Notes: generated by a model from the sequence alone, not told the origin. A stretch of DNA of 64,000 nt from Phoronis australis (GCA_002633005.1 NMRA01000486.1:245251-309250); one strand, 5' to 3'. Shown: positions 13,199 through 18,252, counted from the first letter of the stretch. A program made the numbers and translations.

Positions 13199-13354
13199 AT
13201 GTCAAGTATACGCAAGAAGCTGGTCATCGTGGGTGATGGCGCGTGTGGTAAAACCTGCCTTCTCATCGTCTTCAGTAAAGACCAGTTCCCCGAAGTCTAC
13301 GTGCCCACAGTATTTGAGAATTATGTAGCTGACATTGAAGTGGATGGCAAACAG
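13199..13354 (+). CDS. RHOA: RhoA shared first coding exon (aa 1-52)
   Basis: Acceptor tttcag at 13187, ATG at 13199, [52 protein letters not shown], donor gtactg in phase 0. Confidence 0.96.
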
Positions 13355-14098
13355 GTACTGTGGCTACTACCAGCATATGTTGACATGTACACTTTCAAAC
13401 GTTACTTTTTGTATTTTAGCTGTTCCTTCTATATTTTATTTACGTAGTTACGAATAATCACTTCTTCCTATTGCTTTTTTGGTGTTGTGCACTTCGCCAT
13501 GCTAAGTGGGTGGTTCCTATCCTGTAAACTGGATCAGTCGTACAAACAAAACTTATGTGTGTAATTGTGTGATTGTAACATCACTGTGCGAGTGTTTTAT
13601 GCCATTTTGGAGCACAATGTTGAGTATTATCGCAGTGTTATCGTCGGCGATGTGTCCTTGGTTTCATTGGCGGTTCCGTTTCTCCTTGGTATATGTTCAG
13701 TGTCGGCTTGTCTCTACATGTTGTCTAACTATTCCAAACGCCACGACTCGGAAGCTTCAGTTTTCTGTGGATTTATTTTTTTCTCGTTTCTGGTGAGTTG
13801 TAAACTTTTCTTAGCATGCACTGTAAACAACCTGCATGCATGCTCTCCACTGCTCAGCATGCTTTTGTGACGTTATAGTTATGAAGCAAACCTTTCTGTC
13901 TACAGATTTGTACAAACAGAATGGAGATTACACATGAGCTCTCGCTTGCCAGTTCTTCCAATTCTCTTTCTAGCCTTTCCTTTTGCGTTCTCCGCAATGT
14001 CTTGAGTAATAACATTCGTGCATGACGGAACTTTGCTGAAAGTATGGTAATAATGCAAGTCTTGTTCTAACAAAGTGACTTCCATGCTGATATGTTAG

Positions 14099-14415
14099 CA
14101 GGGCCCTCAATCTCTTGATTTCGGGGCTAAGCATCGGCCCCATTCCCCTCTGAAAAAATATTGAAAAATACGAAATTCCCTTCATGGGGCCCAAAAATTC
14201 CTCTCGAGGTTCAAATCACTTGTAACTCACACAGGTTACAAATTGAATGAGCACAGAAAGTTAACTTTAGCTACTTGAGGCAGAGCCTATGAGGGCTTGC
14301 AACAGGGGTAGTGGGGGTGCTATTGATGGTGATTGGGGGTGTATAGTTTTCCCGTCGCCCCAAAAAAATTCTCTTCTCAGAAGGCACCTTTCCCCTCGAG
14401 TGATCGTGGGCCCTG
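14099..14415. mobile_element. MITE with CAGGGCCC TIR and 5-bp TSD GTTAG
   Basis: cagggccctcaatc ... gatcgtgggccctg flanked by gttag/gttag; homologous to 16445-16783. Confidence 0.8.
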
Positions 14416-15325
14416 GTTAGTCTGGTCAGCATTTTATGTCTCACATGCTTGATCGTGACTGAGATTGACATATGCATATGCTTGATCTTGTCTGTAGATA
14501 GTTGGCTGCCCTCTGTGGGTCACAATGTAGCAACAAATGATCACCACTCAACATTACTAGACAGTGTCAATTATTCAATGGATTGGTTGCTGGTGCTGTT
14601 TGCCATGCACTTCAGTGCCTGAATGGAGTGTGCAGTAGTGGGAATGTTGATAGAATACAGCTGCTGTCTTACCGCCCTGTATAAAATGAGTTAAGAATAG
14701 TTTACTGCAGTACAGTTCCTGAAACGCATGCAAGCTAAACTCGCTTGTGCTTTAACTGCCTTTATGTTATTTATGCAGTCTGTTTTTGAGTGCTTGTATG
14801 TTGTTCGAGTTAGTCTTGTTACTCTGTCTTAACTTTTTATGTCCAAATAAGAGAATGTTGTGCATAATGAATTTCTGAACAAACAATGAGTTGCCTTTGT
14901 CGATGTTTCGGTTTGCGATTAGTATATTATTTACGGCCATGTTGAAGTTAATCGTTCCAAGGATATTGGTGGTATTTTGTAGTTTCTTTTATTATTTGTA
15001 AATGTATTCACTTGTTGCCACTTGTCAACCACATCCATAAGGTGACCAGGCAAATCTTGGTTACTTCAGTTACATGTAATCTTTAATGCCTTTCACGTTA
15101 TTGTTTAAGTTTGAGCATATTTAAGGGTCTTCACTGAATGTAGAGTGTTTGTCTGTGTGGCGATAGGTTAACTGCAGTGGCCAACTTGAGTTACCCATTC
15201 AAAATATGTCTTTCTTTCTAAAAATCCACATTTTAAAGAACTTTTGAATTGGTAACCCATAGTCTGCTTGCAAACAAAACATCACTTTTGATTGGCGGGT
15301 AACTCAAGTCGACACTTTATTGCAG

Positions 15326-15748
15326 GTTGAACTAGCATTATGGGATACGGCGGGGCAGGAAGACTACGACCGTCTGCGACCATTGTCCTATCCCGATACT
15401 GATGTCATTCTCATGTGCTTCTCCATCGATAGTCCTGACAGCTTGGAAAACATCCCCGAGAAGTGGACGCCAGAGGTGAAACACTTCTGTCCAAACGTAC
15501 CCATCATTCTAGTTGGTAACAAAAAAGATCTTCGCAACGATGAAAAAACGAGACGAGAGTTGAGCATGATGAAACAAGAACCTCTGAAATACGATGAAGG
15601 GCGGGCAATGAGCGAGAAGATAGGGGCCACCTACTACATGGAGTGTTCAGCCAGGACGAAGGAGGGGGTGCGAGAGGTGTTCGAAGCTGCGACACGGGCT
15701 GCCATGAACAAGAAGAGGAAGAGGAAGAAGATTTGTCGATTACTATAA
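15326..15748 (+). CDS. RHOA: RhoA alternative terminal exon A (aa 53-192, polybasic tail, CRLL)
   Basis: ttgcag|GTTGAA phase-0 acceptor; [23 protein letters not shown]...GNKKDL...[35 protein letters not shown]; intact 423 nt. Confidence 0.92.
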
Positions 15749-16444
15749 ACTGACGAGTCATGGTGTAGTACAGTGCGCCCTAGTGTTGGTTGTGTACAGA
15801 CAGATGTGAACAGACTGGCTGTGTTAGTTGTTCTTGTCTTGTTGTCAATGCTTCCATTGAGCCACTCATCACCAGGCAGGTAGTGACTCAGCCTGCTGCG
15901 TTGTCGAGTGCTCCTGTTTCTGCTTAGCAGTTCGGCTATGTCCAGTGATGGTCCAGATGAATCGGTCTTCAACTGGGACGCGTTTCAGTAGAAGTTCATG
16001 CTTTTCCATTCCCTGTACTTAGGAAAACTGGAGTGTAAAGCCACACACACACTCTCTCTTTCTCTCTCTTTTACCAGACATTTGTTGGCGTGATCGGCGT
16101 AGTGTCGACATCTTTCTGTTTTGCTTTTGTTTTGCGAAATTTAAGTCACAGTGTAGATATAAACTACAATGCTAAATATTGAAATTATGAATGCAACATT
16201 TTTTGTCTTGTTTTAGTTGTTTGTTGTAATTATGTGGTAGTTGTATAATGTACTGTATTGTAAAATATTACCTTATGATTGAAACGGGATACCTGGTTCT
16301 TCTTTGGTCACACAGAAAATACTAGTGCTAGTATTATGCTGCTTGAATTATTTGACACAAGTGAATAAGCATCATCCTTGATTTCATTGTAACTACAAGC
16401 TCACTGAATGAACCAAAAGTAAGGCTGTGACGTCTGTTGCATAT

Positions 16445-16783
16445 CAGAGCCCTCAATCCCTCAATTTTGGGGCTGAATATTGGACCTTATTCTCCTATGA
16501 AACATTGAAAAATCACTCTAAATTCCCCTCACGATGCCCAAACTTCCCCTAAGTGATTGAAAAATTCCCCTCGAGGTTCATATCACTTGTAACTCACACA
16601 GGTGACAATTTGTAAGAGCACAAAATGTTATTTTTTGCTTCTTCAGGCAGAGCCTGTGAGGGCTTCCAACAGGGGTGCTGGGTGCTTTTGATGGTGATCG
16701 AGAAGTAGAATTTTCGCCTCGCCCCCAAAAAATCCCTCTCAGAAGGCACAGTCGCCTTCAATCTTGGACGAATGAGGACCCTG
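16445..16783. mobile_element. MITE of the same family as 14099-14415, independent insertion
   Basis: cagagccctcaatc ... atgaggaccctg; flanks catat/caaat differ from the first copy's TSD. Confidence 0.75.
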
Positions 16784-17829
16784 CAAATATACGTTCTACT
16801 CGTCAACGGTTCAGTTTTAGTCTTTATCTTAACATTTCATTGGTGATGTGTGAGTGATTAGGACTGCAAAATGCAATTTTTTTCTGAAATTATTATTTGC
16901 AGACCTGTAGTCTACGTATATGCATGTGTTTAGGTGCATGTATCTGCGTGGGAAGCCGTGTTCATATCCAGAACCTAGCTTATGCATCAGTGTATAGAAC
17001 CTTTCGAGTAGAACTAAGGAATAGTTTTTTTAAATTAGCGAAAGAAACTTCACGTACGTTACAAAATGGTGGACGTCTGTGTATTCAATTGAAACTATTA
17101 AATGACAAGTACACAGAATGTACAAAGCTGATGTTAAAGATGTGCATGTAAATATCTGCACGAAGCTGAGGTACTTGTGCGGATGTGCGAGACCAGCGAA
17201 AAAATTATTTGAGCAGCGCATTGTGCAGTAGTCTAAATACATGCAGACATGCCGCTATGGTTGGATTAACTACAGCAAATACTGGAACCTAACGTATTGG
17301 ATGGGCAAAGCTGTTTCCACATGGTTGATGATAACCGACTTGTTTTTGTGTAATATTTTACTGTGTCTTTAGTCTTGTTGAACACTACATTTTTGGTTTC
17401 TTAGGTGCATGTTTCATTAAATACATAGGTTTATGGGTTTCTGACAGCTTGGGTGGGCATCATGGCTTTCAAAACACTTTAAACAATCTATTGCTTAGGA
17501 ACTTGCGACTTAAAGAGGCTTTCATAAAAATCAACTGTAGATGGTCTACATTCTTTAATCGTGCATGTAATGTATGGCATGAAAGGTTGGATAAATCTAC
17601 AAATGTGGTTTGTTGGTTTGCAGCTGTTGCCTTTAGCTGCATTTCACAACCGTGTAATAAGGTTTTCTTACTTGACATTTGTGCTCCAAATGGTAAAATA
17701 CAAAAATGAATCCCTGCACTCGAAAGTTGAATGTGTTGGTTTTTAGTCCAACAAAGCATCTTTCAGACACTCGTTCTGCCATCATATCAAAAATAGTCCC
17801 GTTTTTGAATGAAGTTGGTTCCATTGCAG

Positions 17830-18252
17830 GTTGAACTAGCATTATGGGATACGGCGGGGCAGGAAGACTACGACCGTCTGCGACCATTGTCCTATCCCGA
17901 TACTGATGTCATTCTCATGTGCTTCTCCATCGATAGTCCTGACAGCTTGGAAAACATCCCCGAGAAGTGGACGCCAGAGGTGAAACACTTCTGTCCAAAC
18001 GTACCCATCATTCTAGTTGGTAACAAAAAAGATCTTCGTAACGATGAAGCCACGAAGCGCGAGTTGATGAAAATGAAGCAGGAGCCTGTCAGACCGGAAG
18101 AAGGGCGTGCCATGGCCGAGAAGATCAACGCGTATGCATATTTGGAGTGCTCGGCCAAAACAAAAGAGTGCGTTAGGGAAGTGTTTGAGACGGCCACCAG
18201 GGCTGCACTGCAGGTGAAAAAGAAGAAGGGAAAGGGCTGTTGCCTTCTGTAA
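17830..18252 (+). CDS. RHOA: RhoA alternative terminal exon B (aa 53-192, canonical RhoA-like, CCLL)
   Basis: ttgcag|GTTGAA phase-0 acceptor; ...[58 protein letters not shown]; intact 423 nt. No separate exon for aa 1-52 was seen between A and B. Confidence 0.94.

Follow-up and report, generated by a model that had tools for sequence, protein, structure and literature searches.

A RhoA-type gene of Phoronis australis with two homologous alternative last exons

The exchange between exons 4A and 4B of KRAS is limited to the end of the protein. Lying in tandem and homologous to each other, these last exons provide a shared G-domain N-terminus with two different tails; exon 4A dates from the jawed vertebrates and probably derives from an exon of NRAS. 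Among 167 human RAS-superfamily genes surveyed, distinct membrane-targeting splice forms were reported only for KRAS and CDC42 (PMC9882654). In CDC42, the alternative last exons 6 and 7 (CCIF versus CVLL) carry different polybasic regions and 3' untranslated regions (UTRs), and the CCaX motif of Cdc42-palm is prenylated first and palmitoylated second (PMC9868626). Here we describe a RhoA-type gene in a 64,000-nucleotide (nt) stretch of the Phoronis australis genome (GCA_002633005.1 NMRA01000486.1:245251-309250; the whole stretch is called the window), in which a single exon for amino acids (aa) 1-52 seems to be spliced to either of two duplicated last exons, A and B.

This gene resembles KRAS in its tandem homologous alternative last exons on a shared N-terminus, and CDC42 in being a Rho-family gene with alternative last exons. 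Unlike in KRAS, however, aa 53-192 are duplicated, the two copies have been homogenised in part, and a separate stop codon and 3' UTR belong to each. The CDC42 isoforms differ only at aa 163 and in the tail, whereas A and B differ at 24 residues, including the insert helix and G5. Vertebrate RHOA and RHOC also show near-identical switch regions and tails of differing basicity, but they are separate genes, while A and B belong to one gene; Arg188 of RhoC reportedly has a role in membrane binding. By analogy, then, the gene is considered to work like KRAS4A/4B and CDC42, and to be set apart by its scale (the alternative exons swap 73% of the protein), its likely age and the partial homogenisation. 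Taken as a whole, it is probable that this is one RhoA-type gene with one aa 1-52 exon spliced to either duplicated last exon, that the arrangement is ancient in molluscs, annelids and nemerteans, that the switch-II half has been kept alike by conversion, and that the two products differ in membrane and insert-helix binding. The features are collected in Table 1.

Table 1. Features of the RhoA-type gene in the window
Feature	Position	Strand	Remarks
Non-coding first exon	8310..8398	+	5' start approximate; RNA read ends and GT at 8399
Shared first coding exon	13188..13354	+	ATG at 13199; aa 1-52; G1/P-loop, switch I; phase-0 donor
Terminal exon A, coding	15326..15748	+	aa 53-192; tail of 13 residues with 8 Lys/Arg; variable copy
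Terminal exon B, coding	17830..18252	+	aa 53-192; tail of 12 residues with 5 Lys/Arg; conserved copy
3' UTR of isoform A	15749..16315	+	end approximate, 16240-16315; RNA depth drop
3' UTR of isoform B	18253..18970	+	poly(A) site at 18970
Identical tract, copy 1 (proposed conversion tract)	15319..15534	+	7 intronic and 209 exonic nt, equal to 17823-18038
Identical tract, copy 2 (proposed conversion tract)	17823..18038	+	sequence identity to copy 1; RNA reads

Translation gave the coordinates and frames of the three coding exons, and the phase-0 acceptors and stops of the two terminal ones, as a preliminary description of this DNA had claimed: the coding part for aa 1-52 is 13199-13354, and exons A and B, 423 nt each, translate into 140 aa and a stop. 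The two exons are homologous, in tandem and of equal phase, lie behind a single common upstream exon, and are both preceded by ATTGCAG. A six-frame tblastn search of the whole window found only one aa 1-52 exon, again as claimed, and no Rho piece beyond this exon and the two terminal exons; the assembly is without N from 9782 to 31660. PF00071 matched all three coding exons, and the motifs G1-G5 are visible, G5 being SAR in A and SAK in B. Exon A aligned without gaps to residues 53-188 of human RhoA with an E value of 2e-75 (1e-49 for Rac1); its solved-structure relatives were, best first, RhoA, RhoC and RhoB, and forms A and B both align gap-free to RhoA. A G domain, closeness to RhoA/B/C with the Rho insert helix, and a polybasic tail with a CaaX box, which mark the RhoA/B/C (Rho1) subfamily, are thus all present. 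Upstream, loose read ends before 13186 (550, 370 and 1396 reads in three raw runs) have a unique match at 8369-8386, and a non-coding exon ending at 8398 is joined by splicing to 13188.

The RNA data consisted of these three stranded raw-read runs from one study, of each of which about 18-19% was read, and one contig set (X1). The reads are 151 nt long, and a separate alignment to exon A alone was made for diagnosis by exclusion. Depth was 615, 446 and 1632 at 13291 in the shared coding exon, 348, 233 and 894 at the A-specific position 15595, and 431, 325 and 904 at the B-specific position 18099 on the sense strand; both unique halves and both 3' UTRs were covered by sense-strand reads. At the first diagnostic base, 15535, the B-type reads were 314 of 683, 235 of 488 and 705 of 1591 (46%, 48% and 44%), in other words, A:B was about 54:46. 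In the X1 contigs, one common piece (depth 1616) forks into A (401) and B (1188), which would give A a share of about 25%, although contig depth is a poor measure. Both terminal exons are therefore used, as had been proposed in the preliminary description, which compared the gene with KRAS4A/4B and CDC42.

Upstream of the identical tract, the loose ends (323, 256 and 891) all matched exon 1 with an agreement of 1.0, save four reads (X4) in which B's own upstream intron is joined to the tract. Among the reads on exon A, no molecule start was found inside the tract, and intron depth was 3-9. This means that both forms use the one first exon. A joint from A to B was absent among the 13 joints listed. 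The joints to 15326 and 17830 were counted as 157/146, 116/129 and 424/413, and these counts were rejected as evidence, since reads of 151 nt cannot span 209 identical nt and are split about 50:50 by this ambiguity. For the same reason, the short-read comparison of the junctions 13354->15326 and 13354->17830, which had been suggested as a check, is uninformative.

The two mRNAs have separate 3' ends. For isoform B, the poly(A) tail shows as a run of 23 A directly behind 18970 in an X1 contig; depth drops to about 1-5 past 18906, and variant signals are at 18947 and 18951. For isoform A, depth falls from 88-240 to 4-17 past 16255, molecules end at 16109-16288 and the X1 contig stops at 16314; in the rows shown, no poly(A) tail was seen, and the only variant signal was TATAAA at 16158. 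Of the two poly(A) sites expected, that of B was thus found as a tail and that of A as an RNA end near 16240-16315. All six coding single-nucleotide polymorphisms (SNPs) in the rows shown were synonymous; within exon A, this holds for all three X1 SNPs. There is hardly any doubt that one gene gives two mRNAs with separate 3' ends, the linkage of exon 1 to each unique half being by exclusion.

Exons A and B are identical over the first 209 exonic nt and the adjoining 7 intronic nt, whereas the remaining 214 nt contain 77 differences; neither this partition nor the non-coding first exon ending at 8398 had been recognised in the preliminary description. In the differing 3' part, 26 codons are changed synonymously and 24 are replaced. 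Where both copies encode the same residue by a degenerate codon, the codon is identical at 66 of 66 positions in aa 53-121 and at only 19 of 44 in aa 123-192 (Fisher p 4e-13). The identity ends at codon 122, directly ahead of the insert helix. Within the tract, no difference of at least 2% was found in the three raw runs, at depths of about 320-1830. Since the identity is present in the RNA of the organism, it is not an assembly error. An old duplication, the 5' half of which was lately homogenised, is the pattern expected of gene conversion, and the sequences make this explanation very probable. With its sharp edge before the insert helix, the tract would lend itself as a clean natural experiment that sets conversion against selection for divergence.

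The preliminary description had attributed the duplication to the Phoronis lineage. The same layout is, however, present in oyster and scallop genomic DNA and in 23 lophotrochozoan gene models. Relatives were taken from the best 120 of 2401 in a search for longer proteins, among which many RHO models of about 320 aa were listed; 60 long proteins were split into units, and further cluster members were added. Models with one P-loop and at least two terminal units were kept, one per species, giving 29: 21 molluscs of four classes, one annelid, one nemertean, a rotifer, a sea star, two corals and two insects. Same-species repeats, two-P-loop models (tandem whole genes), fish RhoB-like models and degenerate models were left out. 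In all 23 fused lophotrochozoan models, which are not independent of one another, the downstream unit is nearer to exon B than the upstream unit is, with 36-41 of 43 residues identical to B over aa 123-165. Across species, the downstream units are 90% and the upstream units 70% identical.

The oyster and scallop sequences come from the supplement (S2 File) of a bivalve Rho survey (PMC4669188) and were read by eye. The oyster CgRho-1 gene contains a single aa 1-52 exon and two terminal exons, of which only that at 8385 is annotated, while that at 5125-5547 is not; the first 167 nt of the two terminal exons are identical and are followed by synonymous differences at most codons. In scallop PyRho, the annotated exon at 14552 is preceded by another near 10913-11337. 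In these published sequences, the extra terminal exon is unannotated. In a tree of 79 rows and 61 columns made by a quick method, A copies group within mollusc subgroups and exon B is placed among B copies. The simplest reading, which seems rather likely, is that the arrangement originated once, before molluscs, annelids and nemerteans separated.

In the same material, oyster CgRho-2 was considered as a counterpart of exon A and rejected, as that supplement shows it to be a divergent gene apart from CgRho-1 that begins with a first exon of its own. It forms with CgRho-1 a pair of Rho1 forms in one spiralian species, as do Schistosoma SmRho1.1 and SmRho1.2, which differ in switch I, have a common CaaX and are called paralogues (PMC8670706), yet neither pair equals the system described here. 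Oyster Rac also shows two C-terminal halves, namely a fused Ostrea model (P0200), "CgRac-2" without G1-G3, and an unannotated Rac exon in PMC4669188; this is possibly the same exon arrangement or tandem genes. The non-coding first exon contains, at 8317-8332, a 16-nt motif that is, by eye, identical in the oyster and scallop RhoA first exons of that source; none of the 80 metagenome loci had it when up to 2 mismatches were allowed. Rho terminal exons that are fused or orphan were further noted in sea star, coral, amphioxus, fish RhoB-like genes and rotifer (P0169, P0172, P0026, P0174, P0181, P0180), with an order and conservation unlike the mollusc pattern, the rotifer excepted.

The protein isoforms A and B are identical over aa 1-125, which hold the P-loop, both switches, G3 and G4. 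The differing residues lie in the insert helix (126-133), in the α4-β6 region (139-157), at G5 (162), at 166 and 173, and in the tail; differences in the insert helix and G5 had been noticed already. Identical switch regions imply the same nucleotide switch and the same switch-binding effectors, and these are expected here because A and B share aa 1-125. Both isoforms end in a CaaL tail (CRLL in A, CCLL in B), for which the rule predicts geranylgeranylation. Counted over the nine residues ahead of the CaaX cysteine, A has 7 Lys/Arg (K/R) and B has 5; intact B tails have 5 throughout (22 of 22), and the ten clearly assigned mollusc A tails all have 6-7. Judged from the sequences, the conserved contrast is polybasic charge together with the insert helix, so that the likeness to a RhoA/RhoB pair suggested earlier is a poor analogy. 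The more positive tail might hold A more stably on the acidic plasma membrane, with B showing standard RhoA behaviour; insert-helix partners and membrane binding are predicted to differ between the isoforms, core effectors not. A real difference in membrane targeting is somewhat favoured. It should be mentioned that exon B has Cys at aa 166 (18169-18171), where Gly is found in 46 of 46 lophotrochozoan units compared; no read difference was listed at this codon in the rows shown.

Several points weigh against reading the locus as an ancient gene with two functionally distinct isoforms. Exon 1 is linked to the unique halves by exclusion, and neither long reads nor read pairs were found to span them. 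The A share is nearly constant (52-56%) in three runs of one study, so that a regulated choice is not evident from them. The single Rho1 tails of arthropods also have 6 K/R, and the usual gap between A and B is therefore only 1-3 charges. Fused models can arise from tandem genes as well (Nasonia versus Trichomalopsis, Adelges versus Aphis). The exon pair of scallop PyRho is without homogenisation. Two terminal exons were found in none of the 80 metagenome loci, many of which are transcripts or short contigs, and in four B-type genomic loci (L002, L005, L006, L008) exon 1 leads directly to B, so that the layout is not universal. Finally, neither A nor B was resolved as one clade in the tree, so that a single origin is not established.

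In one alternative, the splicing is the same, but the duplications took place independently in several lineages, and A would be a spare under loose constraint that differs little from B in function. The low identity among upstream copies, which do not form one clade, would fit this alternative; the window's A resembles upstream copies (22-32 of 43) no more closely than downstream ones (24-31 of 43), and scallops have a third copy (the Ylistrum model, and PyRho). Against independent origins, however, the breakpoint at aa 52/53, the order and the rate asymmetry are equal in 23 of 23 models, and A copies group by clade (Shimodaira-Hasegawa-like approximate likelihood-ratio test, SH-aLRT, 98 for pteriomorph bivalves and 95 for heterobranch snails). 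A spare copy would hardly be intact, account for about half of the mRNA and carry synonymous SNPs. We regard this alternative as unlikely.

A switch of lipidation, in which B (CCLL) would, like brain Cdc42, carry both a prenyl and a palmitoyl group and A (CRLL) a prenyl group alone, was the purpose proposed in the preliminary description. The ending of B and the order of modification in the CCaX of Cdc42-palm (PMC9868626) are in its favour. In CDC42, however, the CCaX contrast is defining, whereas here it is not conserved: CCxx, although present on B, occurs in 0 of 22 orthologous, downstream-copy B tails and in 8 of 247 RhoA-type tails of the comparison set. Since no orthologous B tail is CCxx, CCLL is at most a local addition, which may add to the difference in Phoronis, and as a conserved purpose such a switch is very improbable. 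An artefact of assembly or polishing, or two genes or haplotypes with one first exon absent from the assembly, might be suspected from the perfect 216-nt duplicate and the ambiguous junction reads, but is already largely refuted and has only the slightest probability, as reads of other samples lack any tract difference and show both continuations, the common X1 piece branches into A and B, both upstream introns occur in RNA, and the oyster shows the same pattern.

Returning to one ancient gene with two isoforms, no description of alternative terminal exons in RhoA/Rho1 was found in the literature searched, which did not extend to subscription papers. The databases hold part of the arrangement, since some NCBI records give isoform labels to single proteins of the A or B type (Patella X1, Octopus X3, Littorina X2), and about 20 genomes have public RHO models of roughly 320 aa that resemble fusions of both exons. 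The founding Rho sequence, Aplysia rho (P01122), is a B-type product, and the model XP_012946940 has an extra upstream copy; a second Aplysia isoform was not described in the literature searched, and the databases often show a 320-aa fusion. The bivalve survey treats the B form of oyster, the A form of one scallop and a third form of another as one orthologue (PMC4669188). If the reading is true, RhoA would be a third and older case of membrane-targeting splicing after KRAS and CDC42, and work on molluscs and worms would mix two proteins in its knock-downs, probes, antibodies and orthology calls. The chances are about even for a still wider proposal: that a spiralian two-isoform RhoA locus has persisted for >500 million years, unnoticed even in Aplysia; that its two copies are tied together in the switch-II half by conversion, while selection maintains the contrast between a conserved housekeeping isoform and a more basic one that evolves fast; and that RhoA/RhoC-like specialisation has thereby come about without gene duplication.

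For isoform A, 13354 would be spliced to 15326 and the RNA would end near 16300; for isoform B, exon A would be skipped and the RNA would end at 18970. The choice may be a competition: either the A acceptor is used and the 3' end is formed near 16300, or A is skipped in favour of B. Three unproven candidate elements for this choice were noted. The last 22 nt of the first coding exon up to the donor (13333-13354) are complementary to intron positions 14596-14617, with 20 of 22 Watson-Crick pairs. This duplex, found post hoc, has -41.2 kcal/mol (shuffles, -29.7 ± 2.5; 0 of 300 reached it); another window of exon 1 reaches -38.8 kcal/mol, and such pairing is absent at 10 other loci. A hairpin at 15184-15309 covers the branch region of the exon A acceptor (z -2.65; -1.70 for the equivalent span before B). 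The third is TGCATG, which we take to be an Rbfox-type motif and which occurs 8 times in 3485 nt (13355-15325 and 16316-17829), where the rate in the window predicts 1.6 (p 3e-4, post hoc).

Each of the two introns also contains one copy of an element of about 310 nt with terminal inverted repeats (~14099-14416 and ~16445-16785; 74% identical). Since reads of many variants map there, it is likely a dispersed repeat resembling miniature inverted-repeat transposable elements (MITEs). Downstream on the minus strand, a single long open reading frame (ORF) at 19516-20646 has both thermolysin M4 peptidase domains; its look-alikes are mostly bacterial clusters (Atlas), by which gene transfer is not shown. 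Other neighbours are CDK20 exons at 3-1373 (-), a PQBP1-like exon at 39590-39883 (+), recognised by eye and without a Pfam match, and CUB-domain exons at 55613-57214 (+). The best hits of the CDK20 neighbour, at 83-88%, were spread over amphioxus, annelids, echinoderms and vertebrates; the B signature and the 5' UTR motif would point to a lophotrochozoan. At the end of the window, 60057-61217 and 62826-64000 form a coding duplication of 1.2 kb, 96% identical and beside an N, which is possibly an allelic or assembly duplicate.

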